Source: a virus (taxonomy: Duplodnaviria > Caudoviricetes). From it: 51,428 nucleotides of DNA. Location of the stretch: the IMG/VR virus record IMGVR_UViG_3300042291_000667, positions 1-51,428 of that record, one strand, 5' to 3'. This document shows, piece by piece, positions 5,629 to 45,200 of this stretch (positions within the stretch are counted from its first letter, which is position 1; every line of letters starts with the position of its first letter). The notes beneath the pieces were generated by a model. It worked only from the letters and a program-made list of their open reading frames with translations, ran no database searches and was not told the origin of the DNA. A program made the translations under genes and the position numbers.

Positions 5629-5895
5629 ATGAAGGAGTTTATCATGGGATTAGAGCAATTCTTGACAGAAGAAGACAAAGCGGCGTCGCTAACAGAAGTG
5701 CGTTCTTTCATGTATAAAGAACTCTTTCAATTATGCATTCGTGTTGGTATTGACCCGATGGATTTCGAGTACGAAACATGGGAAATACCTGAATATACGG
5801 AAGAGAACAGACATCTTGCTCAAATGTACGGAACCATTAATCAGACCTGCAAAAATTTAATCATTATTGACAGAAAACTTGCTGGAAACCAATAA
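5629..5895 (+). CDS. Hypothetical protein (opposite-strand cassette gene 1; start may be the second Met after AAGGAG)
   Basis: 88-aa ORF fills a gap with no long minus-strand ORF. AAGGAG precedes the second ATG; TAATG coupling to the next gene. Confidence 0.7.
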   Translation: MKEFIMGLEQFLTEEDKAASLTEVRSFMYKELFQLCIRVGIDPMDFEYETWEIPEYTEENRHLAQMYGTINQTCKNLIIIDRKLAGNQ

Positions 5896-21026: not shown

Positions 21027-24000
21027 TTACGTCAATAGTCTCATCATTTTGGACATTTCGCCGGAAACTTCACTTTGTGAGTAGACGTCTCCGCCAGACA
21101 TGTAGTTCTTTAGCGACTTAGTTGCTTCATTGGCATCTTCGACGCCAATCTTTTCTTCTACCTTTTCGATCATGTCTTCGATAAGATCTCGGAGGACAGG
21201 TGGCAAGTCGGTGTAGCGGACTTTCTGCGACTGTTGATCGAACGGCAACGGAAGGTTTGCGATTGCAGTACCTAACTGAGCTGCCGCTTTTCTAACGTTT
21301 TCAACTGATTGTGGGTTTAAAGACCCTGTATCTAGCCCCTTAAAGATTGCCATAAGGTCAATAGCTGCTTGGACAGCCGCGTCATAGTTACCAGCGTCGT
21401 CTAGGTTTTCTGCCTCTTGGACTTTTTCAACAACGTTTTGAAGACCGCTGTCTCCAAGGTCTTGCTTGATTCTTGCTAGTACTTGGCGAAACTTGCCCTT
21501 GGCGTCACGAGGTTGGTTCTTACCGGAGATATACTTTGCTCCAGCGGCCAAAACTGCCTTTTCTGTAACTGCTTCTGTGTTTTCAGTTTTCACTGCCAGA
21601 AGCCCCTCCTTGAGCTGAATTGTGTACTCTCGCAGCGCTTGTGCCTCTTCGTCAATAATCGACGCAGACTTCCACTTTTCAGGGATCAGGTCTGCCTTGT
21701 CCATTGCGCGTGCTTTTTTCATAATGTGACGGCGAACTGCGGCTCTACGAGAAGGCTTCGATCTTCCGTATGCTTGAATCGCATTCTTAAGATCTGACTC
21801 GTTGCTGATCGGGTATGAACCGTCTGGAAGTGCCTTGCCTTCTTTAGCAAGCTTCTTACGGTCCTTCATCGAGATGTAGCCCAATGACTCGTAGTCAGCT
21901 ACACGAACTCGATCTGAAAGCTCTCTTGCTGTCGCAATTAGCGCATCGCTATTTTCTTCTGGCAAAGATAACGAAGTGCCTTTGACTCGCTGGCGTGCAT
22001 CTTCTGCTTTTGCAGCAAGCTCATCTTTTCCGCCAGCTTCAAGAGTTGCAATACGCTGTGTGAGTTCTGCAAGCGGATCATTCTTCATCTTTGCAAGTAC
22101 TTGAGCACCAGCGGCAACGAGAGCGTACACTTGACCAGACGCAACGCGTGCGCGTGCGATTGGGAATCCAGGAACGTTTACCTGACAAACAGCAACGAGC
22201 TCGAGAGAGCCGCCGATTGGGCGCCAGTCGCCTGATGGAGCAGATGCACGAAGCGCACGTACTTGCTCTGGTGACGCATTAGATCTAAGAGATCCAGCAA
22301 CCCAGATGCCGTATGCGTCTTCACCTGCGTGAACGTCTGCGATCGCTGAACCGGTGTCGTCATAGTGGCGAGCCGCGTCGATTGCATTTGCGTTCAATGA
22401 TGCGTGTCCGCCTGCTAGTGTCAATTGACCGACTGGGTAATCCTTACCGTCGTCGGCACGGACAACGCCAGTGTGGAAATACGCGTAGCGGCTCTTGCTC
22501 TTGGGAGGCTTAGTGCCAGCAGTCATGCCAATGTGGTTGACATGCCATGCTGCGATGTGGCCAAATACGCGGCCTTCGTCGTCTACAGTTAGTGGCATAG
22601 GCCCAGTTAGTTTTGGATCTTGGAACCATGTAGATGGTGGAACCACTGGGATTGCACCAGCAAGAATTCCACAGGCAACAATTGATTGCGCCTCAAATTC
22701 GTCCATGTCCTCGACGTAAATTCCGTCAGGTACCATTTCTTGACCTTCCTCTTCGTCCAGCGCGTAGACAGGCTCTTCGATAAAGATGCCGCATTCTTGA
22801 AACGCTGGTTTCGGTACTATTGTAACCGCCATTACTCTGGCGTGACTAATATGAATTTTGTCTCCGCCGATCATTTCCTCATCATCTTCAGAAATGTCAC
22901 CGGCTTCTGTCTTTTTCTTTGGCTTTTTCTTTTCCTTGGCTTCGAACTGATCTAGATCAGCAGAAACGCCGCGAAGAATTTTCTCACGTACAAGTCGTTC
23001 AGCCTCACGACCATATGCGCCAGTATCAAACGTACCATAAGCGTTTCCGATACCGTCGTCAGTGCGCTCCATGTGGTCGATACGGCCAACAACTACTGAT
23101 CCGTCATGGCCACTACCTGTCTTGATCTGCCACAGTAGTGGAAGAGGAAGATCACGGTATGTGATCGAGCCTTTATCGAACCTACGTCCGTCACCAGATT
23201 CCATGCCTTCTGGAATGACAAGAGGAATCACAAACTTAGAGCCTGCTGATTCTGTATTGCCGTTAATTTCATATGCTCCAGAGGCCAATAGAACGCGCTC
23301 TCTAGCACTATCTGCGGCAGCTTTCATGTACGCCTTGGCGATAAACTCGTCTTCAGTGGCAATAAACGCGTTGTCGTACGCGGCGCTTGCTTTGATGTTT
23401 CTCTTACCAACGTTGTACTTGCTGCCGGGCCACACGCCAGTTGCTTCTTTGTGGCGAAGCGAGCAGTAGCCTTTTGCGCGAGGGCCCATATATTTAGCGA
23501 GCTGTTTATAGCAACGTGTCCAGTCGCCAGGGGTATTCCAGCGAATCTTTAAAGCACCTCTACCATAGAGCCAGTATCGACGAAGCTTTTCAGCCTGGCC
23601 GCGGTTACGATCAAGTCCACCTTCGACGCCGACAGCAACTAGCGGCTCGGTCTCGCTGGGCGCTTCTCCTGAGCTTTGGTCAACTTGGCTAAGCACTTCA
23701 ACGTAGACTTCGCCGTGTAGTGGTACTACAGGAGGCGGAGTTGCAGATGTGAGATCAGAAAGAATTTCTTGATCTTCATTCCACTTGCCGTCTACTCTCT
23801 TGAACACAGTAGGAGCTGTTGAATTCTCACTTGCAGGAATAATTGAAATTAGGTCCATAACAGCTGATGGATCGTCTGGAGAAACAAGAGCCAGATACAT
23901 GGGCTGAACGTCAGATGTGTCTGGAGTGAGCGGCGCGCCTGCTCCTTGAGAGCTTGACGGCTGCTCTGCAGCAGAGACTATTGGCCCTTTGCCACGATAG

Positions 24001-25604
24001 TTGCTGAAGAGATTCTTAAATAGTGGGTGCTCTCTGTAGTCATCATATGACGGAGTGTAGTCTTTGTCTTTTTTAAGCTTCTTTTCATACTTAGCTTTGA
24101 TTTCAGATGTACTCTGCTGTGGCGGCGGCGTGGGCTTGTTGCCAGTGCCAAATGCATCTCTCTGCGACTTTACCCACGCTGGGTAGTCGTACAAAACTTT
24201 CTGAAGTTGATCTGGAGTAAGTGGAGGAAGAGTTCCTGGAATTCTTGCATTTGGTCTGTCTGATGGGACTCGAGGTTCGCCTAAAATTCCTGACGTGTCG
24301 AGCGGTGTGTACGTGTCCTCAGGTGTGATCGCAGTTCCTTTAAAGTCTTCTGCTTTTTCTGTCGAGTTGCCAGGTACATTTTGCGTTGTTCCGTCGTCGA
24401 ACTTTACAGTCACGGATCCGGTTCCTGGATCGATTCTAGTGATGTTTCCAGTTTTACTTGCATCGCCGCCAACAACTACGCGAGATCCCATTGCAGCAAA
24501 GCGACCATTTTTGTCGCGTACCTGCTTTTTGGCGTTAGCGGCTCTTTCTTTTGGGGTGTAGTTGCCGTCTTGTGCGTCTTCTTCTTCTCCAGCTGCAACA
24601 ATTGCTCTATCAACAAGCTCCCAGTCAATTTCATCTGCGGCAGATGAAATAAGTGAGTGCTCTTCTGGATCAAGATCTTCGATCTTTACCGAATTAAACG
24701 GATGCTGTTGAAAGTGAGCCGACAGCACTAAAGCAGAGTCGACGTCAAGAAAAATGTGCCGCGAGTCTTTTGAAGACTGCGCGCTATCAAGCGTCAAATC
24801 CATCGTTGAAATGTCAGTATCAACCTGCCCAAGATCGTCCCAACCAAGATCGTCCCACACAGAGAGATTTCCGTCGACGCTGATCATATAGAGTCTGTCG
24901 ATGCTTTCGTCTGTGTCACGCACTCGCGCGATAAACGCTGGAGCGTCTTCATCCGTAGCTGCTTCTTGCGCCGCCTTAAATGCCTTTAGATCGGCCTCAT
25001 ACGCAGAAAACTCAACCGCGTAGTCATTGCCAGACGCGCTAGCTTTCATCGCCTTCTTTGCATTATTATCGCGTTCAACGATCTGTCTAGACCATCTCCA
25101 CGCGGCATCTCCGCCCCAGAGAGCCCACGCAATGCGACCGTTTGACGGAAACCCATCTTGGCCTGGTCTGTAGCCAGAGGCTTTCTTATCGACCTCATGG
25201 CGTGGAAAATACTTTGCAATGTGGCGAATTTTTTCAATGCCGACTTGGCCGCCTTTTGCGAGAGTACGTGCTGTGTTAAGCCCAACAGGCGTGCCGCCTC
25301 GATCGTGCTTTTTTCTCCACTCAAGAGCTCTTTTTGCTTCTTCTTGGACTGCCTTTGGGACTGTGTACATACGCCCAGACGCAACGACAGTCTCAATGCT
25401 TAGGTCAGCCAAAGCGCCATGTGCAAGATCAGTGTACATTTCCTCTACAGACGAAGCACCTTGATCCCACTGCATAATAGAAGAAAGAGACGATAGAGCT
25501 CCAACATTCTCGACCATGCCTGTGCGTGTGTCAATTACTACTGCGTTTGATCCATCCGTAAATAGAGCAAAGTTTTTGCATTGCCCGAAGACTTTAACAA
25601 TCAT
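21027..25604 (-). CDS. Capsid maturation protease, multi-domain fusion
   Basis: PEG.ESGDGR.F...LPLPL.WQ...GH.GSVVVGRI...GVSADLD protease domain (~22950-23240); second domain GRVFGHIA.W...GED..GIWVAG...SGDWR...NVPGFP (~22160-22640); several extra small domains. Confidence 0.85.
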   Translation of the reverse strand: MIVKVFGQCKNFALFTDGSNAVVIDTRTGMVENVGALSSLSSIMQWDQGASSVEEMYTDLAHGALADLSIETVVASGRMYTVPKAVQEEAKRALEWRKKHDRGGTPVGLNTARTLAKGGQVGIEKIRHIAKYFPRHEVDKKASGYRPGQDGFPSNGRIAWALWGGDAAWRWSRQIVERDNNAKKAMKASASGNDYAVEFSAYEADLKAFKAAQEAATDEDAPAFIARVRDTDESIDRLYMISVDGNLSVWDDLGWDDLGQVDTDISTMDLTLDSAQSSKDSRHIFLDVDSALVLSAHFQQHPFNSVKIEDLDPEEHSLISSAADEIDWELVDRAIVAAGEEEDAQDGNYTPKERAANAKKQVRDKNGRFAAMGSRVVVGGDASKTGNITRIDPGTGSVTVKFDDGTTQNVPGNSTEKAEDFKGTAITPEDTYTPLDTSGILGEPRVPSDRPNARIPGTLPPLTPDQLQKVLYDYPAWVKSQRDAFGTGNKPTPPPQQSTSEIKAKYEKKLKKDKDYTPSYDDYREHPLFKNLFSNYRGKGPIVSAAEQPSSSQGAGAPLTPDTSDVQPMYLALVSPDDPSAVMDLISIIPASENSTAPTVFKRVDGKWNEDQEILSDLTSATPPPVVPLHGEVYVEVLSQVDQSSGEAPSETEPLVAVGVEGGLDRNRGQAEKLRRYWLYGRGALKIRWNTPGDWTRCYKQLAKYMGPRAKGYCSLRHKEATGVWPGSKYNVGKRNIKASAAYDNAFIATEDEFIAKAYMKAAADSARERVLLASGAYEINGNTESAGSKFVIPLVIPEGMESGDGRRFDKGSITYRDLPLPLLWQIKTGSGHDGSVVVGRIDHMERTDDGIGNAYGTFDTGAYGREAERLVREKILRGVSADLDQFEAKEKKKPKKKTEAGDISEDDEEMIGGDKIHISHARVMAVTIVPKPAFQECGIFIEEPVYALDEEEGQEMVPDGIYVEDMDEFEAQSIVACGILAGAIPVVPPSTWFQDPKLTGPMPLTVDDEGRVFGHIAAWHVNHIGMTAGTKPPKSKSRYAYFHTGVVRADDGKDYPVGQLTLAGGHASLNANAIDAARHYDDTGSAIADVHAGEDAYGIWVAGSLRSNASPEQVRALRASAPSGDWRPIGGSLELVAVCQVNVPGFPIARARVASGQVYALVAAGAQVLAKMKNDPLAELTQRIATLEAGGKDELAAKAEDARQRVKGTSLSLPEENSDALIATARELSDRVRVADYESLGYISMKDRKKLAKEGKALPDGSYPISNESDLKNAIQAYGRSKPSRRAAVRRHIMKKARAMDKADLIPEKWKSASIIDEEAQALREYTIQLKEGLLAVKTENTEAVTEKAVLAAGAKYISGKNQPRDAKGKFRQVLARIKQDLGDSGLQNVVEKVQEAENLDDAGNYDAAVQAAIDLMAIFKGLDTGSLNPQSVENVRKAAAQLGTAIANLPLPFDQQSQKVRYTDLPPVLRDLIEDMIEKVEEKIGVEDANEATKSLKNYMSGGDVYSQSEVSGEMSKMMRLLT

Positions 25605-27231: not shown

Positions 27232-30200
27232 CTATTTCGCCTGTCTGTTTTTCTTAGTTTCGTTGTCATGCTCTGCATATACAGACTCAAGTGGTTGTAT
27301 TCTATATTGTGCAGACGCAGTTGAGAATGTACCAATCCCAGTTTTTTTGTTAAATATCAGATCAGTTGGCTCTTTAAGCTCGAACAGTCGTGTTCCGTTG
27401 TCAGTGGCTACTGCCAGAACAATCGCGATCTTGCCGTCTTCTTTCTCAAGAACACGTCGCTTAACCGTGTAGATCACCGTTATCGTTTTTTCTCCAGAGT
27501 TGTACGTTGTCTCGAGGCCAGCGATGCCTCCGATAATGTTCCCTGTTTCGATGAAGTACTCAAGAGAGCTTACGTAGCTTGGAGCGGCAGACGTTGGTGT
27601 TCCTGCTGAGACGACTGGTCGAATCCCATCTGCAAGAGTGTCAATCATTGTTTCAAGAGCCTCTCTTGCTTCGATCGGCATGTTAGACACTGCCCAAGAA
27701 GCAAGAACAGTTGACATCGATATGTCTGTTGTTTTTCTGGTGCCGTTATCATCATAGTACCACTCAATTAGGTTGTTAAGAGATTCGCGCCACGTGTCTT
27801 CGCTAAGATAGTGGTTTATGACGCCGGCAGGGACATACTGCGGAAGATCAAATTTAGATATTCCTAGCTTAGAAAATCCACTAAATACATTGTTGTCTTC
27901 TGTGCCATACATGTAAGTAAAGAATTTTTCAATTCCAGAGTCATTGCTGTCCAGAATACTCAACGTGTGCGTGAGGCCGCTCTTTGAAACCGCACGGCGC
28001 ATATACTCCGTGGTCATGTCGTACGCTGTCAAGCTCTCAGCGTCACTGCCGCTGTACAAGTATAAGCCACCTGAAGGTTCCTGCACGTAGATGTCCATAG
28101 TCGGATTTTCACTGCCTGGGCGTACAAGTCCAAGAATCTTAGATCCGTCAGGTGCTGGCATGAACCATGTAGTGCCAGTATCAGACTCAAAGTCCCACAC
28201 CTTTGCGACTACGTTCGTAAACGCACGGAACTCAAGTGGGTTTGCGCCCATGCTTAGTTGTTTTTGCTCGATATCTTCAACAAGATCCGCATTCTCTGCT
28301 ATTTGTTTTGCGATTCTTTCTCTATTAGGAACATCACCATGCACTACAAACAGTTCTTCTACTGGAATGCCATACATCGTAGTGATTCCTGACTGACTTA
28401 GCATGTCAAGAATTTCGTTTCTAATGTCTTCAGCTACTGATATGTATGTTAAGTACTCTCCAAAGTCGACGTCATGCTTAAACATAGCTTCATATGCGCT
28501 CCTATAGGTTGAAAGATCTATTTCTGCATAGATGTCGTGATTATTGAAACGCTGGCCGAACTGGTCTTCTCTATTTCCATAAATGTCAAGTCTTCTTAGC
28601 AATTTTTCTGCAGAAAAAACAAATATTGTGTTCGATAGATCATGAGCGGAGTCTTCGCTAGTAAAGTCGCTCAAAGACGTTTTTACATTCATCGGAGTCG
28701 TAAACACATAGTCCGCTGACCCTTTCTTTATGTCAGAGTCAGATGACAAACCAGTGTCTTGATTTCCTTCTAAAAGTCTTGTCATAGTTGAATTTAATCT
28801 ATTCGCAGACATAGTTCTTAGAATTGATTTTGCAGCGGCAGTAGCCGTGTATTCTCTAGGAACGGCAGAAATTCCACCAAACATAATATTAGGATTGTCA
28901 ACGTAATACATCATTCCAGCACGCATATTCGGTACTTCATGCTCAAACCTGTCAATTTCAAGTCTTTGCGCGAGTTCTTTTGCTTTTTCTTCTGAGAACA
29001 TCATTTCAACTCTGCCAGTGTCTGATATTCTAAATTCAATGTCGTCAACGGTGACATTTTCAGTCTTCTTTATCGAATCAAGCAACTCGTCTCTGACTTG
29101 CTGATCTTCAACATTTTTTGCTGGGTCAGTGTACTGCTTGAAGATACTTAGTAGCCTGTTTTCTGCGATTACTTTAAGATCTTCATTAGTGCCTGCTCGC
29201 ACATCTTGCACTCCAGCAGCTCTTAGCGCCGCGGCTATCTGGTCTTCTGTTGCGTCAAGCGGTAGATAGATTCTCACTGTATTGTCGTACGACACGGCCG
29301 ACTCGTCATGAGCATATGGCCTTTCTTGAATTGGTATGTTGTAGTCAGGCACAAAAAATTCTTCGCCGTCTTCATCAACAATTTCGTAGACCGCGCCCGT
29401 CTTTCCCTTGCTGTCGTCTATTACTAGTATGCTGCCTTCATATATTACTGGGCGGTTAGTGTCGGCTTGTGCTGCTGAGACTTTGACAATTTTCGCCGGG
29501 CCTCCTGTCCGAACAACTGTGCCGCTCGCAGGGTCGACATAGAATTGCGCCGGCATTACAGGCTTTTCTGTGATCTCAGCTTCCGAAAGATCGCCACTTA
29601 GTTTTAGAGCTTTTCTCTTTGCAGGATTTATAACATCTTCTTTGTTATTGTTTCGCACAAATCTGATTGGGTCTAGCAGTCTATCTGCTGCCCATGCGGT
29701 AAGCTTGAACCTGAGAGAAAGTTTCTTTTCGCCAGTAGGTTCGTCAACAACGATTGATGCACGCACTTCGAGATCTTCGATATCTCCGCCGTCAACAAAC
29801 GTACTTACAGCAATATCGTCGCTATTCTTAACGTGGTGGATCGCGTCCATTACTGAATATGTTCCATCGATCGCTGACGCAGAAAGCGGCAAAGGATTTT
29901 CTGGAGTGACTTTAGGACGTCCAGTTTGAGTAATTTTCTGTGCACCAACCATTTCAGGCTGTTCTTTTGGTTCATAGACAGGTAGCTCTAGCGGGCTGTC
30001 ATACACGCGACTGATTGCAAGCACCTGCTCGATCGACGATGCAACTGCGGGGTGGAGCATGCCGTTATCGTTGAGATCTCTAATGTCGTCTTCTGTAAAC
30101 CAGCCGAGGTCACTATTCTCGTCATCGCTAATCTTGAGAGAATCTGTCAATGAACTATTGTTAGTAACATCGACAATCATTGTTTCGTACTGCCAATCAG

Positions 30201-33200
30201 GCTCGACAAAGTTTGTGTGCGTTGCAATCGGATCTATTCCTTCTGGATAGACACCAAGTTCTTCTTTTAGCTCTTCATACGCTGTAAGTTGCGGACTTTG
30301 AGCGTGCTTCTTGTCCTTGTGCGCGCCGCCTGGCCATGCCCACTGGCCGCCGCCTGCTGAGATGTTTGCTGAGCGCTTTGCGAGTAGATACTCAAGCGTG
30401 CCGTCTTCTTTGACGCGGCGTAGCAGTGCACCTGCTGCACCGTATCTTCCCCAATAGCGCTTTCCTGACTTGGCGAAGTAATATCCTTCACCAGAATCTT
30501 GTGCGCCTGAGCTATACAAAGGAACAAAGAATGGAAGCGCAGGAGGTTCAAGCGATCCGTTCTTTAGCGCATAGACATCGTCGTATCGGATGTCGATACC
30601 GACAGTGACACCAGCCTCGTCGACATACGTGATCGATCCGCCACGCCATTCTTTGTAGTCAAGTTGAAGCGGTCCGTTGAGATCTTCTGTAGTTTCTTCA
30701 ACTGCTGCAACTGGACTCCACCAAGGAGCATCTTTTCCATACTGTGTAAATGTTGGCTCACCAAGTTCTTCGCGAACTTTATTGATCTTTTCGATAAGAC
30801 GTGAGTTTCGTTCTTTGGACGCCTCGACAATCACCTCAAACTTTTGTCCTAGGACTGGATCATCTTTGTAGTGCTCAGCAAGCCACGCTGCATGTCCGAA
30901 AGCGATTGGGTATATGCCGTTTGCAAGATCTTCTATTGGAACCCACAGAGCGGCCCGTGCATCATCTTGCGCAGTAAGCTCTGTGCCATCGGGTACTACG
31001 TAAGACACAGCGCCAACGCTTACGCCATTGACAAATCGGGGGTCCCAGTCTGGCGAATCTGTCACGCTACCGAGATTCTTACGTGACACTGCGTTTGCTG
31101 CATCAAAGCCGACTTCTTCTTGCATCTCACGGTCGGCAGCTTGCGCGAATGTTTCTCCAGCATCAAGCATTCCGCCTGGAAGAGCATACGCACCGCGGAA
31201 CGGCCCAAACTCACGCTCAATCATTGCAATAAGATCACCTTCATCTGAAGGCTTGATGATTACAGCATCTGACGCAGTCATGTGTTCTGTCTTTGCAAGA
31301 GAAAACTTGTTAGTTGCTTGCTCGACGTCGTCAATATCCAGCGCTTCGTCGTAGTAGGCATCGATGTTTACACCGAGTTCTCCTGCTGCTTCAGCAAGTG
31401 CCTCACTTGGTGCTGCTTTTTTCTTTCTTTCTAGCGGAACTACTTCAAGTGTGATACGCGTGTATGGTATAAATTCGTTATCATCAAAATCTAATGATTC
31501 ATTTACTCTTTCTACAGACTTGACACGGTAGCGTCCGTTTGGAATAATTGATTCTTTCTCAGACTTAACATGGCTGAGCTGGTCTATTGCGTACGCGCTG
31601 TCGACTGCGACTCGAAGAACTACGTGACCAACCTCTAGCGGAGAAATTTGATCTCCAACTTGTTCATAGTCTTCATAGTCAGACGGGCTTCCTTTGATGG
31701 CAGCAGATAAAAACTCATCGAAGTTCGTTAGCTCATCGGCGTTGGTCCACGACGACGGACGAAGAACGACTTCTTGCCCAGGCGTGAGCATGTACTTAAG
31801 CGGATGATCGTCGTCTGTAATCTTCTTATCATAGAATGACAAGAATCTGTCGTATTCTTGAGGTGGATTTCCACTACCTTCCCAGGCGCGCAGGATTCTT
31901 AGAAACGCGGAAGCTGGAGTCATTTCAATGTCGATCAACTCTGGAGTATCAAAGTACCTCGCCAGGTCAGTCCAAAATGCTTTTTCACTTAGTCTGTCCT
32001 TTTGCACTAAGTCAGTTGGAAAGTCTTCTCTCCACTCAGCTAAATCACGCCTAAGTTGCGGCCTTCCAGTTCCAGAAAATGGTGCTGGAGGCAAAGTGTC
32101 TTTAATGTAAGACATTGTCGACGCGAAGATGCCGATAACGGCGTTTTGCACGAGCTCGTCAGTTTTTGCGCGATTTTCAATGGAGTTAATATTCATTTCC
32201 CACATGAACATTGCCGCGTCTTTTGCCTCTGTGTCACTGCCGTCATACTCTTCGTACAGCTTTGCCCAGTTTTCAACGAACTGTGAGCCCATGGCCTGTG
32301 GGCCTTCCGCAACAAGTCTCGCAACAAGTTCTTTGTCACGAGGCGTGTGGTCTGGCGCGGCTCCACGTCCTTCAACAAGAACGTTTGGCATTGAAACATC
32401 CGCGCCAAGAGTTGTAACCATCTCTGTGCTGTTGTCTGGCACTTGTTCTTCAGTAGGCGTCTCTTCTACTGGCTCGTCGAGTTTGTCTGCGTCTGTGAGA
32501 CCAAATCTGTCAAGAATGCTTTGACGTCTGTTTCTAAGCTTCATCTTTAGATCAGCAGCATCTGCAAAGTCACTGATGATTGAATCAACAATTTCGTCAA
32601 TTCTTTCTGGAGATATATTGAGAAGAACCTTTGCAGATTCTTTGACTTGATCGTCAGTCATGTCGCCAAAGATTACAGATGCCTCTGGCGCCTTGCTCTC
32701 GCTGCGAAGCGTGTCAATTTCTCCAACAACGTCTCCGAACATTTTACCTTTGGGCTCACCCTGAGCACGCCACATGAGCGCGCCACCCGGGTCGACTCTT
32801 ATTGGGTTGCCGTCTTTGTCGATGATAACGTTGTCAAAAGTCAGACCTGCAATGTCCCAGTTTGCCAGCCATGCGTCGACAGCAAAGCCCTCTTGCAGCT
32901 TTTCAATTACGCTTCGCTCTGGGTTGTAGCCAAGAACACCGATACTTTCGACGATCGGAGACACAGTGCGTAGTTCACCATTTTTTTCGCCAAGAAGTAC
33001 TTCTACAGCAGGAACTTGCAGTTCTTTGTACAGCGCGGCTGCTAGTGCTTCGTTTTGAGCGTGAAGAGTTGACCTAGGTTCTTTTACATAGTAGTCATTG
33101 CCGTTTTGATCGCGGAACGTTCCACCTTCGTTAGACCCTTTCTTTGGGCCGACTTTTGTCCAGTTTTCAATGTCGTTATACGTAACATTGTCTTCATCTG

Positions 33201-36200
33201 CTTTGACTGGCTCTTGCTCAACGCTTGTTGTTTGATCGATGATAGCAATTCGCATTTTTCTTGAATCACCGTCTGTCGCATCTGTCTTTGACTTGACGAC
33301 AAACGTTGTGCCTCTCGCTAGCACTACTTCAGTTTCAGTGTCGACAGTGTCTCCAAAGTACGCAGCGAGCGAGATTCCTTTAGTTCCGGCGGGCGCTTCG
33401 ATTTCGAGAATAACGCCACTAAGTACGTCAACGTCTCTTGAAAACATTTCGGCCGTGTCATACTCAAGTGATGTTGAAACGAATCCTAAATCTGTAAACT
33501 CTTCACCAACAGCAAGTGAAAATAGTTTTTCAGCTGACCTATTACGTGTTCCACGGTACAAAAGTGTGTTTATTGGCAGCCCTGGAACTTTGTCAATCTC
33601 TTCATCGAAAGCCTTGATGATAGTGTCTAGGTCTGACAGTTCAACGTTGTGCTCTTCTTCTATTCGACTTGCTGGCTTAGTTCCTCTTAGGCGATAGTTA
33701 GTTGCAACCCACATGTTCGGGTCTTCTTGGTACAAGCGCATAGCTGCGGCATTTGCATCATTTACGTCATCTCCAAGAGCGTTGTCGTAGATCTCTCCAA
33801 GATCTTCTTGGTACTTTTTAGTATTTTTTACCGGAGTTAGCGTTTCTTTTGGCTTAGCAGAATAGAACTCGTCTTCAAAGTTAGAATCTACTTTTTCAAT
33901 AACTACAGGAACTTGAAAGTCAGGATTATTGTCAAACGCAGCTATTAGTCTGTGGTGACCGTCATACACACTGCGCGTGCCGTCTTTCCACTCACGGACG
34001 ATTATTGGAGTAAACACTCCTTCGCTTCTTACTCGCTGATTAAGACCGTAGGCGTTTGACTCTCTTTGGTTATTTAGATATTCTTCTGATTCGCCGTCTA
34101 GCAGCGAAAGTCCGTAAGCGTTTTCTGCTGGCAATCCCATTAGTTCTTGCGCAGATATGAGCTCATCGCCATCGTCTTTTTGCGGTGTTTTTTGTGGGTC
34201 AAGAAACTTTGGATCGACTTGGTCTTGTATAAGACTCAAGTCTTTTGTAGTCAACGCTTCGGGAGCCTCTGCTTCAACAGACGCAGAACTTAGGTCTTCA
34301 GTCTTGTTTTTGTCTTTTTCTTTTGGAACTACGACAACTTTGATTTTATCGCCTTCTCGAGAAATCACTTTAAAGACAGTGTTCCTTGGAAGAATGAATT
34401 CAGCCTCCATCTCCGAGAAAGACTCTGGATTACTGTAAGCTTCGTCGTCTTCGACTTTACTTCCATTTGCCGGGTCGACAAAAAACCCTCGAGACCCTTT
34501 AGGAACAACAATTTCAAGAAGATATCCGGCTTTCCCCTTAAACTTCTGCGCAACACTCTCAACAATTGACGTTGAAGAATACGCCACGTTGTTGAACTCA
34601 TCGCCCGGCTGTAGACTAGAAAGCATGTCGATGAGCGGCTCATTTTTTCTTCTCTTGTCTACTCCACGATAGACGAGCATGTCTTTTTTAGTCTTTGGAA
34701 ATAAGCTGATAAGCTTATCTAAAGTTTTTACTACAGCATTGAACCATTTTTCATCTCTTTTTGTCGCGCCTTCTGCATCGCTTTTCAGTCCCGCTAACCA
34801 TGAGTTTACTTCTTCAGCTCCACCACCTGTGTAGTAGTACGCACCGTCAAGGAAGTAGTCATCGTACGACTGGTTATCTTCCCACTTGTAGATAAACTTC
34901 GCGTACTGACTGCTCTCGCGCCAAAGATCATCTTCAATTTCTGACAAAAACTGAGCTGGATCTTGTATCGGCTTTACTTTGTTCCAGCGTGCTAATTCTG
35001 CTATGTCTTCAGGAGCCTCGGGTGCCCCTTGCGGGGCCTCAACTTTTGGGAAGTTGCCGCCGCCACCACCATCGTCACTAGGCGTAGGTCCAGTTCCACC
35101 GCCGTCTGGATCGCCTCCGCCATCATCGTCGTCATCGTCTGAGCGATCTGATTCCTCGCCTGACCACGTTTCTTCGTTTCTGCGTTGGATCATGTTGTTA
35201 TAGATCTCAAGCTGCTGGTCGAAGCTTGGCGGACGTGGGTCATTGCCCTTGTCCTCATCTTTCTTCTTCTGAGCGTCGTTTCTCACGTCTGCCCATGGCG
35301 CCTCGTCCTCACCGATAACGTCGAGTGTTGACGCTGTGCGGATCATTCGAGCAACACCGGGACCCCAGTTGCCTTTCTTGACAGCTCCCTGTTCACGCGG
35401 GTCGAGGTCAAAGCGAACGAATACACCGAGCCAGTCTGTCTTGTTGTAGTCAAGCACGCGACCGGCGAATCCGTTTTTATCGCGGACGCGCATTCCACGG
35501 CGGATAAGAATTCCATTCTTTGACGTACCCATTGGCTCGCCGACCTTGTTAAGAAGCTCTGGCGGTGGAAGATGTTCGCTTAATCTACGTCCATACTTTA
35601 CTTCTTCAATCGCGTCGCGAATTGAATTTACATAGTCTCTAAGAGCTTCAATCTCTGCGGCATCTGGGTTCTTCGACGTTAGAGGAACTTCTGGGACAGA
35701 GTCAGCAACTTCCGCAAGCTTTTCATACGCATCATCGAGCGTTATGTTTCCTGCAACAAGATCGCGTAGTACTTCGTTCACGCCTTCTCTGACGTCAGCT
35801 ACAATGTCCTTGCTTAAAGAGCGCTTCATGTTGCTCGCTGCTTCGTTGAACATGTTGTCGACTTCTGCGAATCGATCACGAATAAATTCCAAGTTAAATG
35901 AGCCGGCTTCAACAAGTTGTGGAGTTTCTTCAACAACTTCGCTGACTTGCTCGTCTGTCATTGGTTCATCAACCGATGGCATATCTGGAGCTGTTACAAT
36001 GTCTGCTGAATCGTCCTGCGCTGTTTCAACAGTTCCAGGCTCTTGTGCAGCTTCACGTCCGAAGATTGCTGGCAGTTTCTTTTGCGCGTCTACAACGCCA
36101 TCTTCTGGATCGCTAAACTTCTTAGTTTCGATGCCAGTAATGGTTTCATCAATGAGATCATTGAGCGCAGGGTTACCGCTAAAGATCACACTGAGCTTCT

Positions 36201-39200
36201 TGCGCATGTCGATCAGTGCGTTGATTCCTGCCTTGGCACCAAAGTCTTTGTTGCCCTTTGTGTCTGCAGCGTCTTGGATCGCGTAAAACACGGTGTCAAG
36301 AGCGTCGTAGACAGCTTGCTCGTCGTCAGACGGGCCATCTCCACCGGGAGCTGTTGTAATTGCTGGAGGCTCTTCTGCGCCACCGTCACCGCTTTCGTCA
36401 GTGACTTCTGGGACTGGAGTTGCGTCCTGCTCTTCAGCTTCAACTTCAGCTTCTTGACCTGCGAGTTCTGGGAACGAGCTTTCGTCATTGGCAGACGTAG
36501 AATCGTAGATCCAGTCCAAAGAACCAGGATCAAGTGCATTGATGGCGCGTGTGGCAGTTACGTAGGCAAGGTTAAACTCAGAGATATTTGGCCAAATGAT
36601 TTCGCCAGTTGTCTTATCCTTGCGTGGGCCACGGAAGTCTGTACCAACACGAACTCGTCCAAACTCAAGGCCTTTCATTTGATGCGCTGTTGAAACGACT
36701 ACGTCAATTCCCTGCCCAGCACGCGCCTCTGGTGTTGAACCGTATCCTTCAAGATCACGAATCAAATTCTGAAGCTTTTCAAGAGCGGCGCGACGGCTAG
36801 CGTCTGTGCTCGCTGAAATCTTCCAGACCTTGCTTTTTCCGTTCCAGTCTGCAACCTTCTTGAGCGTTTCCTTATATGGGAATGTCTTCTTGCCAGTGAT
36901 TATGACTCCGACAGGGTCTATAGAGAAGCTAATTCCGTCAGTAAGTTGGCCGTACGCACCAACACCAAGTTCGTCTGGAAGATCAAATTCAGAGCGTGCA
37001 GCAGTGCCGGTGTCGCCACCCATGCTCTTCTTGGCGTCACTGACACTTTCGATTTGCTGGATCTTTCCAAGCAAATCGTAAAGACCTTCGATTCCTTCTT
37101 CCTCTACGATCTCAATAAGAATGCCTGTCTTTGTGCCTAAATCGCTCTTTTCGCCTTTTGCAGCTTCCTCAGCGACATCTTTCCATGAACGGAAACCACG
37201 CAGATCTTCTGGCATACGCACTGGGCGCTTCTTGCCACTTGACGCACCGCCAGCTTTTAGCCATTCTGCTGCTTCAATGAATCCCTTAAGATCTGCATAG
37301 AACGACTTAGTAACACCGACTGTTCTTCCAGCTTCGATTTCTACAAGAATATCTTTAAACGCTCCGGCGTTTGATCTTACGATAACTGCTTCAGCATCTG
37401 TCATTGTTCCAGCAGGAAGAACTTGACCTGCTGGTCCGCGTCCAATGCCGCGGTTTGTTTCGACTCCGTGTACTCTTTCTTTGAGCGCGAGGAACCTGTT
37501 CGCAAAGCCGCCAATTTCTGGACCGTAGCGCCATGACTCCGTCAATGGAAGACGATATGGAGCCACAGCGTTTTGTAGTTGATCCTTAGCGCCATTGAAT
37601 TGATAGATAGCTTGGTCAGGGTCACCGACCATGATGACCTGAATTGACTGATTGAGAACAACGCTGCCGACAGCGTCGTTTGTGTCTTGAGCTTCGTCGA
37701 GCATGACAACGTCGATTGACCTGTCGACACCTGAGTCAGTACCAGAAAAATCTGGCTTGCTCATCGACCAAAGTTTTTTCATCTCGTTGAATGCAAACGG
37801 CATCTTTCCGTCTGGGTTGAGAATATCTGACCAGTACGTTTGCGCTGCAGAGAACACAACATCACTCAATTCAGATGGAACATCCGCTTCAAAAACATGA
37901 CCCATGTTGAGCATTGGATTTGAGCTGATCTCAAACTTAAAGACCGTGTCCTGCACCATTGATGCTATTTCTGATGCCTCGTATACCTCATCGCCGATTT
38001 TTACTTTAGAAAGGCCCAGGAACTTGGCGATGTCATCTTTGTTGAATAACGCTGTGTCGCTCTTGAACTTCTTGAAAAGATCAGGGTACTGCAATCTCAT
38101 AAAGTTGTATGCCACTGCGTCAGAAGTCTTTACCACGGTGTTTGGTGGGAACTTCGCACTTGCCTCGTCTGCAACTGATCTGTTGTATGCAATATACAGC
38201 AACCGCTTGCTAGGCTCAAGGCCTTGAATAACTCGAGCTCCGAGTGTCAATGTTGTTGTCTTGCCTGTTCCTGCCTTTGCGAGTACGACTACGTCTTCGC
38301 CTGTCAACCACGCGGCAATGATATTTTGCTGTTGCAATGTTGGCGTAAACTTTTCGCCCTTGAAAAGGTCAGCAGGGTCAACACTCTCTGGGAATGGAAT
38401 TATGTAATCTTCAAGATCATCTGCACCCCGATCTGGTAGCGGGCTAGATGAACCGTCTGTTGGGCCAGAGTGAAGTCCATCTGGATCGACGAAGTCTGAC
38501 TCATCTGGTGTTGCCCGCTTGATGATGTCATCGATTGACGGAACGTTACAGTCTTCTCCGTATGGATCACCGGATGCTTTGATTCCACCACCGCCACAGT
38601 TCCACGCGGCTGCAACAGCTTTCGCTGTTTCATAGTCAAGAAGTGCTTGAGCGTATTCTTTCTTAGCGCGATCGAAGTTTTCTTTATCGCGTTCGTACTT
38701 TTGCGCGTCTTTTGCAAGATCAGGAAGTGGCTTGTCGTTGATTGCGCGAATAATTCCGTCAAGAACGTTTCCAACAGCTTCTGCGTCAGCGTCAGCAGAG
38801 TGCCATCCTTCCAGTGTACCACCGAAGAACTCAACAAGAGTCTTAAGCTTGTGGTTTAACGGTCCGTTTGCGTCTGGCTTTACCTTCTGTGACTTCGACG
38901 GCATGAACTGCTGTGAAAGCTTAAGAGTGTCGATTACACCTGCAGGTGTGTAGTCAATTCCAGCGTCTGCGATCACGCCATTGAACACTCCAATGTCGAA
39001 CGGCGCGTTGTGTGCACCAAAGATTGCGTTTTCACCAGCCCATTCTGTAAACTGTCTGTGTACGTCGTCTTTTCCAGGCTGCTCAGAGAGCCACTCATCT
39101 GTAAGAATAACGCCGCCGTCACGCTTAAGATTTTCACGTGACCACAGGCCGAGCGGCTCGCCTGGACTCATGTGCATGTTGAACCTGTCGACAACTTCGC

Positions 39201-42200
39201 CGTTGACTACACGAACAGCACCAAGCTGCACTGGCTGATTTGTGCTGAAGTCGCCCTTGTCACGGTCAGGGAATCCAGTTGTTTCGTAGTCAAAGAAAAC
39301 GAGTTCAGTGTTGCGAAGTCTTTCGCGTACTTCTTCCCAACCAGAAGCTCCGTCAATCAGTTCAGCAGCTGATCCGGTAAATGCCGGTGCCTTAGGCTCA
39401 AACGGACGCTTTGGACGATGAAGAGCTGGCTTGTCTCCCTTTGGAGGAATTGGAGCTCCGCGGAATACATCAATGACGGTTCCTTCGTTCCATTCTTTGC
39501 GCTGTGTTTCGTGCCCTGGGAAGTATCCTTCAACGCTGATCTTGCCCTTAGGCGTGTCAGCATCGTGAAACACGCGCTCAATGGTAAACGAATCGCCTGC
39601 TGTGATATCTTCAGGCTGAAGATCGCGTGCTGCGTAGCCCATGCTTGTCGCCAACGAAGTTGGCTCGCCAAGAATGTCTGCGTCTGGATTGACTGTGTCA
39701 AGGCCATAACGGCTAAGAATCTGCTCACGGCGTGCAATCAAAATACGCGATACTTCGCGTGCTTCGTCTGGATCTTTAATCGCTGACGCAACCATGTCAA
39801 TGATTCGTGATGGAGAGATGTCAAGAAGTCGGCGTGCGCTACGCGCAACATCGTCTTCTGTCATGCCGCCAAACACTACCGCGGCCGCTTTAATTCTTGC
39901 CAAATCTGGATCACGCATTGTGTCGAGTTCTGTAACGTCTTCGTCGAACCATGGCTTAGAGCCGCCTGTTGCTCTCCACCTAAGAGCACCACCGTTGTCA
40001 ATACGGAACGGTTGTCCGTCTGAGCCAGGAACAATATTGTCGTATTCCATGCCAGTGACATCATAGTTAGAAAGCCACGCATCAACCGCAAAACCATCAC
40101 GAACTTGGCTCATAAATTCTTCATTGCGAAGCATGCCGCGGAAATTGCCCTCGTCAGAGATAATCGGGCTAACTAAGTACAGCTCACCATCGCGCATTCC
40201 AAATCCCTGTGCAGGTGATGGAAGCCCAAGCTCATTATAGAACGCGGTCGCAAGTGTTTCATTGTCAACATGTGACTGCGAGCGGCCTTTCTTAATGTAG
40301 TACTTCTTACCGTACGGATCTTTAAAGTAGCCGCCTTCATTTGAACCAGCCTGTGAGGCAACCTTGACTTCTTTCCACATTGAAATGTCGCCGTAGTCAG
40401 GGACGAGGTTTTCTGTTGTAGGTTCATAGTCGGTGTTTTGGCCTCTTGAAGAAACCTGCTTGATTCTGACAATATGCTTTTCTTGAATGCTGCCTAGTTT
40501 GATGAACGAAGACTCAACAGACAAGACTTCAAATGTGCCGTACCCGAAGTGTTCTTTTTCATTCTCAAATGGTGAAATGTGATGAGCAGAAACTGTCATA
40601 CCGTCGCCGGGCTCAAGTACGAAGTACACTCTGTCGAATCCCTTGTTTCGAGAGTCTTGCTGCTCTGGATCGCCCTTTGTTACATCGCTAGATGTGAATG
40701 ACCTCGGGTCCATGTCAAAGACTGAACCCTTTGTAATGTACATGTCGAGTAGTGCGCTATTGTCCTTGGAAACTCCGACGTATCTGTAGAGTTTTTCTAC
40801 GTTTGGTCGCGCGGCCGCAGCAACAAGTCTTGCAAACGCAGCTGCTGTTGTCTTCGAGTTGAGATCATCTTCTCCATCAGCAAGACGTTGACGTCCGATC
40901 ACGAATTCAGGATATCCGCCGTAAGCACCTATGAGTTCTTCATATGCGTCTTGCGCAGCAAGCTCGCTACCTTCTGCGCGAACAAGCGCTTGAAATACTC
41001 TAGCTCTAAAGTGATCGTCGCTGTCAGTCAATCCTTCAAAGTCGATGCTGTCGCCGCCGTCAGTTGACATGAGCATTCCCCAGACGCCTCTAAATGCGTC
41101 ACGATCAGTATCACTTGGGCTTGTTGCAAGTGGAAGATATTGATCTAAAAACGTCCCCATGTTGACGCTTTGTTCGTCAGGATCATTGTCTTGGATCCAC
41201 ATAAGTCTGTCTGCAATGTCGACAAGCTTATCGTTGGGCTCGACGAAGTTTTCTAGTGATCTGACCACGCGAGACGCGGAATCTGGATTGGCAAGCATTC
41301 CGTTTAGAATTTTTGCTTGGTCGATTTGACTAGATCTGCTTGAGTCAGTCATGTCAATAATTGACTTTGAGAAACTGTCAATTGGCGCGTTGGCGGCATC
41401 TCTTGCTCTAATAGCTGATCGTTCCAGCGCTCGGTCTGTGTTTTCTTCTCCGCCGACGCCTGCGTCGTAGATGCCAGCAAGAATTACTTCAACATCACCA
41501 ATTCCTAATCGAGACACAGCGTCGTATATTGCCTCGGCACTTACATACTCATCAGCTTTGTCGAACTTGAGCAGTCCGTACCCTGTTGCTGGTGCACCTG
41601 TTTCTTCGTCTGGGCTAATCGCGTTCTTGAGTGCCCACAAAAGTGTGATTGCACTATACTTATTAGCAAGAACTGCTGGATCGTCAGTGTAGTCAGAACT
41701 CTGTACGTCGTCAGCTGCGCCCTTTGGCACGTATCGATCGAAGATATTGATTTTGTAGAAGCCTTCACCAACTGCGGGAAATGCGTCGTCAAACACAGCT
41801 TCACTAAACACACTTGGCGCATCAGTTGACTCAATGGTCTGACTGTCGTCAATTTCACCTGGAATAGACGCAGGCACTTCGTCGCTTGGGCGCTCGCGGT
41901 ACACGTTTGCCATAAGCTCGTCGACGCGATCTTCTCCAGCTGCGATGGCGATTGCATCTCGAAGGTCTTCTGGAGAGCCAAAGAAACGAACTACTCCTGG
42001 TTCAACAAAGCGAGCCTCTACTTGAACTGCGTTTTTCGAAGTCCACTGATCTACGTCTTGTTGATTTTGTACGTAATCTTCGCCGCCTTCGGCATAGAAA
42101 TCTGGAAGATCTACGCGGTAGCCAGCGAGCATCTTATCGCCTTGTTTCTGCGCGGCTGCGTAGTCCTCGGGTGACAGACCGAGCATGTTTGCAAGATCAG

Positions 42201-45200
42201 TGCTGGCGATTGAGCTGTCATCAACGGTGACTTCAACTCCTGGATACCCGCCGTGCCAGTCACTACCTGTTAACTCTGCAGTGAATCCGTAATCTTCTGT
42301 GTAGCGTCGAATTGTTTCTTCAACGTCTTCGGCGTAGCCGATGTCAAAGATAAACTTACGAGGTCCGCGGCGCATTCCTTCGATAAGAGTCGATGGATCT
42401 GACTTAAATGCTTCAGCAAGGTCCTGGTCATATTCATAGTCTTCAAGACTGACATAATCTCCTCTACCTGTGCGTGAAAAGTCAAATGCCTCTCCAAGAG
42501 ATCTAACCCAGACTTTCTTTGCTTTCTTATACTTGCTAAAGAATTGAGCTACGGCCTCATCAATGTCTGACTGCGGCATCGGCATAGTAAATACTGATGT
42601 GATTGAATTGAATGCTTCGTCGAACTGGTTAATCGCGCTTCGTGCGAGCCCTCTGTCTCCGCGCTCAACTTCTTCTTCGACACCGAGTCCGAACAAGTCT
42701 TCGAAGTCAAGGTTGTACACTTCCATCACTTTTGAAAGAGCGGTGAAGAACTCGCGAGCAGCCGCTCTACGGTACGCCAAGTCTTCTGCAAGCTGCGCGG
42801 CTGCGCCAGTTGCTGGAAACTCGTCAACCTTGTCGCTCTTACCTGACTTCTTGAGCTCTGGAATCATCTTTCCGAGAGAATCAGCAGCGGCAAATCGATC
42901 AACAAAATCTTGAGGAACATCGGAGTACTTGTAGATTCCGCCGCCCTTACCATCCTTTGATCCGAACTGTATAAAGAGGTCTTGTGTCTGAGGATCATAC
43001 GCAGCGCGATTGACAGCTGTGCTTCCCTTAGTATCAATTTCTTGCAGGCCTGTTTCTTTAGCGCGTGCGACTGGTTGTGCTGCAGGTGCTGCTGGAGCAG
43101 GCCACAGTGCGTCGACTATCTGATCAAGGTCTTCTTGCGGAAGATTGACGATGTCGTCAAGTTCCGTCTGCTTGAGCTTGCTGTCGACTGGCTTTGCAAA
43201 CTTGTCGAGGAAGAATTCTTTTTCTGCGTCAGCGGCGTACTCAAAACCGCGAAGCTTTGGACGGTTGTTCTTTGGATTGACAGTGATCTCAATCGGCGTA
43301 ACAACGCGAGGCTTTTCGTGGTAGAGGAATGAAACGTCTTTGCCGCTTGCAATAGCGCCTTCAATTGCAGAACGGAGTCCGTCTTGGTCGATTGATGTTA
43401 AATCAACTGGACCTTCCTGTGGTTTACTTTCATACGTATCAAGCAGCTGCTGTACGCCAGTGTTTCGTGGGCTGTCTTGGACAAACTTCTTAAAGTCTGG
43501 GTCGTTAGCAATTTTCTCGCGGAAGTTTGTTGCATTTTGCTGCGCATTAGCGATTTCTTCGTCACTAAGCGTGGTGAGGACAGGGCGATCAATTTGTCCA
43601 CTTGGCTTGTCTGGGCCGTAAAGATCATCGACGAAGAAGTTTTTTTCTTTTCCACCGTCAGACATGTCGAGCGCTGTAACAAGTTCTTTTCCTGTCTTAG
43701 GGTTAACCCAAAGACGCTGAGGATCAATTATACGATCTTTGCCTTTGTAGTTAACGCGAAGCTTTTGCTTCTTGTCCATCGCCATTTCAACGCGGCGACG
43801 ATTTAAGTCTACAAGAGGATCAGTATAGCTGTTGAAGTCGACGGTGTCTGGTTCTTGACTTACTTCGCCAGAGATAATGTTGTTGAGAGTCGAAAAGAGA
43901 TCATCTTTATCGAGATCTCCGCCACCGTTGTCATAGTCTGCTACTACATCACCAATTTTTTGCGCTTGATCTGATGAAATCTCACCGGCTTCTTCGAGAC
44001 CACGGATCTTTTGCAAGAACTCGGTGTCAGAGACTCTGCCATACACAAAGTCTTCAGCTGCAGAAGCTGCGTCTATTGGAGCTTCAGCGGCCTGTGGAGC
44101 TTTAGAAGCTTCAGGCATCGCTGAGATTTTGTCAACATTGTACGTGCGCTCGTCACCATCAGTAACTGACCAACCTGTGACGTTGCGATTTCCGTTTTTC
44201 TTGTTGTCGTAGATCTTCGAAGGCTGGAAAACAATATCTTTAGCGCCGTACTTAAAGCGAATGTTGTCGCCCTTGCTGATGACAGCATTAATTGCGTTCT
44301 CGAGCTGTTGACGTGACTCAAACGGCAGAAGGTCGCGTGTTACGCCTGTAGACGGACGATACTTAGGGACCTCTCTTTGCTCACTGCCGCCGCCTGTACC
44401 GCTGACAATGCGGAAGCCGTCTTTTTGAGCGTCATAGATTCCGTCACCGTCTTCTTCGTCAAAGTAAATAGTCTGACTTCCGTCTGACATTCTTACGTTG
44501 CCGCTTTGTTTGATCCAGCGAGTTTCTGTTATACCAGCGACAGGGTTCTTGTCACCAGGTGCACCGCGATCTCCGAGTGGGATGTATCTGGCCGCTTCAG
44601 CTGCTTTTTCTGCAGCGGCAGCTTTTTCATTTGCCTCTGCGTTGATCTTATTAACTTCAACCATGTCGGCATCGATGGCGTCGATCGCATCGTTCCACGA
44701 CGGAAGACCTCTTGCAACATTAATGTTGTCACCGTACGCTTGGTTAGCGACACCCCAACCCATGCGCCAGACTTCATACGTGCTGCCGTCTGTTCCTACG
44801 CGCTCCGTAATTGTGTGTGCGCTGTAGACACTGTCTGTATTTGGTTGGTGCGAGTACGACAACTTCGACGACCCGTAAGCAGTCCAACCAGGGCCGCTCT
44901 CACCGGGTTCGAGAGGGCCAGAGACACGGCTTGATGGCGGCTTTGGCTGAGTTGGGCCACCTGTCGGCGTCTCAGGCAGCGATCGGAGGTACTTCTTTTC
45001 GTGCTCACCATCAACGAATGCACCGCGATAGAAAACTGACGGTACTTGACCTGGTGTGCTGTCGACAAACTGTTCCTTCAGGAACTCCATCATGTCTGAG
45101 TCAGACGGATCAATCGGCTCAGCCTTGATCTCGTCATCGGGAACGGTCATCTCAGCTATGTAGTAGCTACCATCTTCATTGCGACCGTAAAGAACGTCAC

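Follow-up and report, generated by a model that had tools for sequence, protein, structure and literature searches.

How does a phage use a single protein that carries several ADP-ribosyltransferases (ARTs) together with Nudix hydrolases? This question is raised by the virus record IMGVR_UViG_3300042291_000667 (Caudoviricetes), of which we analysed positions 1 to 51,428, a stretch of 51,428 nucleotides called the window below. One of its open reading frames (ORFs) encodes a giant protein of 6544 residues (aa), and an initial annotation made from the sequence alone proposed that this protein could add ADP-ribose (ADPR) to its targets and then trim it, recycle ADPR, or destroy defence signals derived from it. 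We propose instead, with a probability of about 0.58, that the giant protein is a polyvalent virion protein: it would be made late, packed in the capsid, trimmed by a protease and injected, its ARTs modifying host targets and its Nudix domains breaking down free ADP-ribose-type molecules. It is likely a toolbox for host takeover, not a coupled write-and-erase switch.

The giant ORF lies between the portal and capsid-protease genes and contains no internal stop and no N. Long parts of it are covered by independent lake contigs, none of which spans the whole ORF. An assembly artefact was considered and rejected: 40 other proteins of 3611-7986 aa have the same N-terminus. Pfam was searched with 22 overlapping tiles spanning the protein, which returned two PF03496 ARTs, two Nudix domains, a DEDDh exonuclease, a UvrD helicase and a KTSC domain, together with weak WYL and ParB matches. 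ARTs and Nudix domains make up 7 of the ~18 recognisable modules, listed here from the N- to the C-terminus:

27232-46866, minus strand: the giant polyvalent ORF
45907..46830, minus strand: N-terminal head-type module (aa 13-320), with candidate cleavage motifs at aa ~160 and ~180
43198..45507, minus strand: four WYL-like repeats (aa 454-508, 856-917, 1026-1085, 1159-1223; Pfam WYL E 0.003, PADLOC WYL E 1.3e-8)
42838..43026, minus strand: KTSC domain (PF13619 E 2.1e-9)
40459..41331, minus strand: divergent R-S-E ART 1 (R2028, S2056, E2103/E2105), predicted unnamed family (alignment, AlphaFold model, fold search)
39697..40395, minus strand: kinase-like domain 1, HipA/PI3-4K-like (language-model features, weak Pfam matches)
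38758..39318, minus strand: DEDDh 3'-5' exonuclease (PF00929 E 9.2e-15)
38542..38604, minus strand: Cys-flanked Gly-rich loop (aa ~2762) with a hydrophobic-x-Ala-(Ala/Ser) motif, candidate protease site
36496..38358, minus strand: UvrD-like SF1 helicase (PF00580 E 5.1e-16)
34345..34899, minus strand: VIP2-type ART A (R4067, STS 4098-4100, E4154/E4156; PF03496 E 1.9e-17)
33847..34104, minus strand: ParB-like domain (PF02195 E 0.0025, PHROG E 4e-7)
33223..33744, minus strand: VIP2-type ART B (R4438, STS 4464-4466, E4511/E4513; PF03496 E 4.5e-13)
32491..33180, minus strand: kinase-like domain 2 (43-46% identical to domain 1)
31501..32373, minus strand: divergent R-S-E ART 2 (R5007, S5038/5039, E5103/E5105; profile homology to ART 1, motifs)
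30763..31359, minus strand: Nudix 1, NadM-Nudix/ADP-ribose pyrophosphatase-like (PF00293 E 2.5e-15, PDB and NCBIfam profiles)
30016..30651, minus strand: Nudix 2, RenU-like, non-canonical box (PDB 6uuf E 4.5e-14)
28360..29229, minus strand: C-terminal H-Y-E domain (aa 5880-6169; H5976, Y6053, E6126), predicted DarT-like ART fold (model and fold search)
35266-35949 (minus strand), 39337-39663, 41434-41793 and 29227-29946: four conserved scaffold domains without convincing family match

The motifs quoted in the initial annotation are each present once, in order, in this one ORF and within ~10-20 nt of the positions given for them. The two intact R-STS-E-x-E ARTs that it described are borne out by PF03496 scores of 63.7 and 49.4 bits (cut-off 23.4), with R, STS and E-x-E kept in both. 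The E-x-E, which is the signature of arginine transferases, also survives in 37 of the set's 39 VIP2 copies; searched against the PDB, the canonical ART profile scores best with VIP2 itself (E 1e-22).

A second, divergent pair had been described as ART-like and as resembling each other. Divergent ARTs 1 and 2 gave no match to one another in tile BLAST at E<=0.01; their family profiles align nonetheless (HHalign probability 96.6%, E 5.9e-10), and each aligns weakly with the VIP2 profile (70.5% and 67.6%). The motifs quoted for the pair are present, but the catalytic E-x-E had to be moved to E2103/E2105 and E5103/E5105. The R and both E-x-E glutamates are invariant in 33/33 copies of divergent ART 1 and 24/24 of ART 2; R, S and E-x-E of ART 1 are invariant across an alignment of 28 sequences. 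None of these 28 members matched PF03496, and two touched PF01129 (best E 0.046). The AlphaFold model of divergent ART 1 (predicted local distance difference test score, pLDDT, 89) points to an ART fold: in Foldseek, all listed rows were R-S-E ARTs except anthrax lethal factor (best E 1.8e-5), with matches to Certhrax, Vis, C2, Tre1, HopU1 and SidE-type ARTs. By VIA, the top 21 rows were ART-fold chains (best Z 8.9, root-mean-square deviation (rmsd) 3.8, 154 residues aligned) and unrelated rows scored 3.6 or less. ART 2 is assigned this fold through profile homology to ART 1 only. The ART fold expected of the pair is thus found in the model of ART 1 and, by homology, predicted for ART 2. Because neither copy reaches the Pfam threshold, the pair represents an unnamed R-S-E ART family. 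PDB profile searches started from the alignments of the divergent ART, the kinase and the C-terminal domain yielded no meaningful match; these three domains are identified by folds and motifs.

The C-terminal domain, which lies outside the coordinates of the initial annotation, is likely a fifth ART, judging from its model (pLDDT 87). By VIA it is nearest to DarT1 and DarT2 (Z 9.7, rmsd 3.6, 153 aligned; Z 9.2), then to Tpt1, SopF and CopC/OspC. Foldseek gave the same ranking at E 0.03, with no match at E<=0.001 in PDB or the viral library. The H and the Y are each kept in 31/32 copies and E6126 in 32/32. The domain therefore resembles DarT1 and DarT2 in predicted fold and in H/Y/E-type conserved residues. 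It differs from them by its low identity (9-12%), by the lack of a sequence-family match (no ART match in Pfam or PADLOC) and by the absence of a DarG/NADAR partner from the giant ORF, where Pfam found no Macro or NADAR. ESM Atlas gave a weak lead (OspC on 33% of one cluster, below the recognition threshold), and when longer proteins related to the C-terminal ART were sought, only two fragments came up, which is weak evidence.

The giant protein likely contains two HipA-like kinases as well, which the initial annotation overlooked. K2192, E2203 and three Asp residues are invariant in 45/45 copies of the kinase-like domains, ESM Atlas features place the domain at 0.93 to HipA_2 clusters, and 3 of the 45 members have a weak Pfam HipA_2 match. 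A weak PI3/4-kinase match was also seen near the C-terminus of gp82 of the cultured phage Pumpernickel (2235 aa; L083 15384-22091).

The Nudix box of the giant protein had been called perfect. The spacing GX5EX7REUXEEXGU is indeed kept in 16/16 copies, but its U positions are M and F here, and none of the 16 has I, L or V at both. The suggested likeness to ADP-ribose pyrophosphatases stands: the best PDB match of Nudix 1 is NadM-Nudix (2qjt, E 1.5e-8), and its best NCBIfam match is NadM/Nudix, low-scoring and below the whole-protein cut-off. A second Nudix domain had been missed; by its profile it is RenU-like, its closest solved relative being mycobacterial RenU (PDB 6uuf, E 4.5e-14). Its box is canonical in 0/20 copies, the box Arg and the first Glu being absent. 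Both domains differ from these closest solved relatives in being embedded in a phage polyprotein, without an adenylyltransferase domain. An eraser-type glycohydrolase was rejected: the 22 Pfam tiles contained no Macro, ARH or NADAR at E<=0.05. The label 'eraser' is thus overstated. Nudix enzymes take off AMP, and phosphoribose stays (PMC8883491). Nudix ADP-ribose pyrophosphatases (ADPRases) were inactive on protein-conjugated ADP-ribose in vitro, whereas RppH and NUDT16 were active (PMC4680915); the ADPRases assayed there are swapped dimers of another subfamily than Nudix 1. Recycling or clearing of ADPR is plausible.

We mapped the architecture of the family with our own profiles on the 41 proteins of 3611-7986 aa that have the common N-terminus, giant included, and on the orthologue from phage DSL-LC01 (n = 42). 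The order of modules is fixed: N-terminus, WYL repeats, divergent ART 1, kinase, usually exonuclease and helicase, scaffold domain, variable zone and C-terminal ART. Divergent ART 1 and the C-terminal ART are each present in 32/42 proteins. In the variable zone, VIP2 ARTs number 0-5 and divergent ART 2 copies 0-2, alongside ParB, a second kinase, Nudix 1 (16/42) and Nudix 2 (20/42). The same pattern recurs at 80 further loci, among the matches listed. These comparisons show a fixed scaffold, made of the N-terminal module, divergent ART 1, the kinase and the C-terminal DarT-like ART, with a variable cargo zone. In a phage that is 96-98% identical, an in-frame insertion of 2019 nt at window position 34261 brings two extra ARTs; from the same point ART A is skipped (747 nt) in 2/4 runs, with short flanks (23-30 nt) that give a hint of loss only. 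Among 30 lineages, Nudix 1 is found in 5 and any Nudix in 14, and the helicase is missing from ~15, DSL-LC01 included. The DSL-LC01 orthologue (WJZ48510, 3289 aa, annotated as hypothetical) occupies the same place between portal and protease/capsid genes. It shares with the giant the N-terminus, WYL repeats, divergent ART 1, kinase, cleavage loop and C-terminal ART, and is without exonuclease, helicase, VIP2 ARTs, divergent ART 2 and both Nudix domains. Other giants with the same N-terminus (P0034-P0037) carry a GNAT acetyltransferase as cargo and none of the giant's other modules, and two (P0013 and P0029) carry pentapeptide repeats.

The window is a structural operon: portal, ferritin/Dps fusion, giant gene, a 542-aa gene, likely capsid protease, major capsid, tail tube, tape measure and tail tip genes. 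The head genes around the giant are the following:

48212..49945, minus strand: portal (phrog_776 E 2e-101)
46863-48149, minus strand: ferritin/Dps domain fused to a head-type domain common with the giant's N-terminus (domain match, shared module)
25601-27229, minus strand: 542-aa gene with DUF5824, the shared head-type domain and Cys-rich segments
21027..25604, minus strand: likely capsid maturation protease, 1525 aa (phrog_18402 E 1.3e-55; best PHROG match labelled portal)
19077..20900, minus strand: major capsid protein (PHROG/capsid comparison)

The region of DSL-LC01 equivalent to the 1525-aa protein consists of three genes, annotated as capsid maturation protease. The first half of the giant's N-terminal module is common to both flanking genes, and the second half to the protease gene and to Pumpernickel gp82, which sits two genes after the portal of that phage. 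A hydrophobic-x-Ala-small motif, which we take to resemble assemblin-type protease sites, is over-represented in the head-module proteins (25 in the giant against 12.3 expected, 12 in the protease against 3.9) and in 0/6 tape-measure or minor tail proteins; outside this sample, 3/8 cultured-phage proteins are enriched for it. The Cys-flanked Gly loop at aa ~2762 carries this motif in 21/23 representatives and is kept in DSL-LC01, which is without both flanking enzymes. One predicted fragment would retain four ARTs and both Nudix domains. GMA2, a related phage in culture (capsid 51% identical), has a portal-adjacent protein, Orf10 (L088 7981-10632), annotated only as structural, with a weak R-S-E ART match and an Acb1-like 2H domain. 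Orf10 is among three proteins found in GMA2 virions by mass spectrometry, and the canonical VIP2 gene product, Orf14, is not (PMC4524720). All 18 listed Orf10 peptides, placed by eye, fall after its first motif site (PMC4524720 Table S5). Neither PMC11965321, in the passages covered, nor PMC9503643, by term search, has anything on cleavage or on the giant family.

We favour a packaged toolbox because the gene sits amid head genes, its N-terminal module is shared with them, the motif is enriched, the modules assort and GMA2 Orf10 is found in virions. The giant protein would in that case be a late product that enters the capsid, is processed by the capsid protease and reaches the host along with the injected phage DNA. 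Once inside, its E-x-E ARTs would modify arginines of host proteins by ADP-ribosylation, in the manner of T4 Alt; other host targets would be phosphorylated by the kinases, and nucleic acid or protein modified by the DarT-like domain. The Nudix domains, where present, would remove free ADPR, NADH or signals derived from ADPR, and would leave the modifications made by the ARTs in place. Several points weigh against this proposal, on packaging as well as on the independence of ARTs and Nudix. The hydrophobic-x-Ala-small pattern was chosen after these proteins had been inspected, and its excess in the cargo zone is small (50 vs 40.1). The GMA2 capsid protein yields N-terminal peptides and one peptide spanning a motif (PMC4524720 Table S5), so not every motif is cut. 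GMA2 Orf10 is a positional analogue only, not a true orthologue of the giant. A fragment of ~3,800 residues would need unfolding or more cuts to pass through a siphovirus-like tail. The remaining points concern co-occurrence. When lineages are clustered on the C-terminal domain, VIP2 ART and Nudix 1 do co-occur (7/15 vs 1/21, p=0.005; 12/21 vs 2/29, p=0.0002). Moreover, a kinase-VIP2 fusion is followed two ORFs downstream by a Nudix gene in 3/3 proteobacterial phages examined. Some functional link between ARTs and Nudix may therefore remain.

Could the ARTs and Nudix 1 then act on the same targets, the former adding ADP-ribose and the latter cutting it to a phosphoribose mark or limiting its duration? 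Apart from the co-occurrence under one clustering, this would fit the predicted fragment that keeps four ARTs and both Nudix domains together, the neighbouring ART and Nudix genes of unrelated phages, and the ability of single-domain RppH and NUDT16 to trim protein-bound ADPR (PMC4680915); SidE offers a precedent for an ART combined with cleavage. However, when the 30 lineages are clustered on the N-terminus the co-occurrence is not significant (3/10 vs 2/20, p=0.30). Nudix 1 occurs only in the large clade that has exonuclease and helicase (5/15 vs 0/15), and within it the association disappears (3/7 vs 2/8, p=0.61). The C-terminal clustering used majority patterns and counted one phage twice (P0018/L021); the N-terminal clustering used one representative per cluster, a choice that matters, some members of the P0011 cluster having a VIP2 ART. 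Both sets are biased (proteins of 3599-11452 aa, loci of ~21 kb, C-terminal ART required for selection), and the whole cargo zone is visible in 69 (C-terminal clustering) or 67 (N-terminal clustering) of 207 ORFs. A phylogenetic independent-pairs test had 2-3 pairs and no power. The conserved trio of proteobacterial phages ST4, Mecenats66 and Touem01 (L085 3692-8502, L086 7033-11984, L087 7126-12051), namely a fusion of the giant's kinase type to a VIP2-like ART, a small gene and a Nudix gene, has a Nudix of a different subfamily (<=13 bits to our Nudix models), and Gordonia phage Forza encodes its kinase and ART separately, downstream of the portal gene. Kinase, ART and Nudix thus appear, at the level of sequence, to recur as a toolkit. 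Nudix 1 itself is closest to NadM-type ADPRases, not to RppH. Of the 30 lineages, 25 have ARTs without Nudix 1 and 16 have ARTs and no Nudix at all, so Nudix is clearly dispensable to the family. The add-then-trim protein of the initial annotation is not upheld: it has no Macro, ARH or NADAR, and ADPRases of the kind assayed do not act on protein-bound ADPR (PMC4680915). We consider coupled trimming unlikely. Doubtful to a slightly greater degree is a more elaborate version, in which a widespread family of lake actinophages injects a DarT-like DNA ADP-ribosyltransferase, whose fold is known from a bacterial weapon against phages, to mark host DNA, along with new arginine ART and kinase families, and an optional Nudix turns the marks into phosphoribose tags that host glycohydrolases cannot remove. 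If true, this would be an irreversible phage-encoded system for modifying DNA and protein in one chain.

The remaining alternatives question packaging, the enzymes or the target. The giant might never enter the virion and act instead in the cytoplasm, late in infection, remodelling the infected cell or preparing DNA for packaging with its helicase, exonuclease and ParB; its ARTs and Nudix would then work at a late stage or target superinfecting phages. Its very large size, the siphovirus-like tail genes and the suitability of DNA-handling enzymes for late DNA metabolism would agree with such a role, but an N-terminal module and motif enrichment in common with head proteins, the loss of the helicase from ~15/30 lineages and the virion-borne positional analogue in GMA2 make it an unlikely one. 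Thoeris/Sir2-type systems are nucleotide-signal defences, and the ART folds could be mainly NAD+ hydrolases or decoys which, with Nudix and WYL, drain or bind such signals. Phage Nudix have been proposed to counter small ADPR signals (PMC9503650), the giant has four WYL-like repeats, and GMA2 Orf10 pairs its ART-like domain with an Acb1-like 2H domain. An NAD+ drain would nevertheless harm phage growth, and the arginine transferase signature E-x-E is present in every divergent copy and in nearly all VIP2 copies; we regard this counter-defence role as improbable. Finally, freshwater-phage VIP2-like genes were proposed to encode a 'Trojan horse' toxin against protist grazers (PMC6802176). The lake habitat and the VIP2 match of the canonical ARTs would suit such a toxin, which we find very improbable here: the ARTs sit amid DNA enzymes within a head-module protein, phages from soil, sewage and gut have similar kinase-ART cargo, and no binding component was found among the 23 other ORFs scanned in the window, which is part of a genome.

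A packaged toolbox has precedents. Models for polyvalent proteins and for head-fused ART/Nudix domains have been published (PMC5512222, PMC9503650). Like polyvalent proteins, the giant has at least two unrelated effector domains in one chain, a head-gene context, mosaic orthologues and multiple ARTs. It differs from those described in PMC5512222 by its four R-S-E ARTs and one H-Y-E, R-S-E having been excluded from the original survey; the kinases of that survey are from other phyla, and its main text mentions 'Nudix' once and 'KTSC' never. T4 Alt and the VIP2 ARTs and Nudix fused to MuF, portal or protease (PMC9503650; Microbacterium clusters EH/EJ, PMC7302621) likewise tie an R-S-E ART or Nudix to head proteins that are presumed to be injected. 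In contrast to the MuF-type fusions, the giant has no MuF match (Pfam, PHROGs, NCBIfam) and combines five known or predicted ARTs of three families and two Nudix domains, one of them NadM-like, in one chain. No published description of the giant family was found in the literature covered, which included few subscription papers; external supplements of PMC5512222 and PMC9503650 may list its domains.

Three predicted enzyme families (divergent R-S-E ART, DarT-like H-Y-E ART and HipA-like kinase) thus have no Pfam, PHROG or NCBIfam model above threshold; across many lake phages, these three are the constant part of the giant head-module protein. The giant protein extends the polyvalent-protein concept to R-S-E ARTs, illustrates cassette-like gain and loss of ARTs among near-identical phages and offers an alternative to the 'Trojan horse' reading of freshwater-phage VIP2-like genes. 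Should DNA prove to be the substrate of the DarT-like domain, a chemistry known from defence against phages would here serve the phage in attack.

As to its source, the giant gene is from a lake actinophage related to Actinomycetia phage DSL-LC01, the closest annotated relative (capsid 79% identical), a lake phage assembled from metagenomic data, whose actinobacterial host is a computational prediction (PMC10611076). The stretch 29500-36000 is present in 20/23 listed runs from 19 studies; 19 of the 20 are labelled lake or fresh water, and two may be the window's own source. None of the listed runs carrying it is an RNA run. The tail genes are siphovirus-like (tape measure, Dit), with no tail sheath among the 23 ORFs scanned in the window. 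Amid them, a 235-aa ORF without PHROG match lies on the opposite strand (5895-6602, plus strand). The 1525-aa protease-like protein has two R-D-x-x-G-x-F motifs, like the giant's N-terminus, and the ferritin/Dps fusion at 46863-48149 is possibly a virion-carried iron or oxidative-stress protein.

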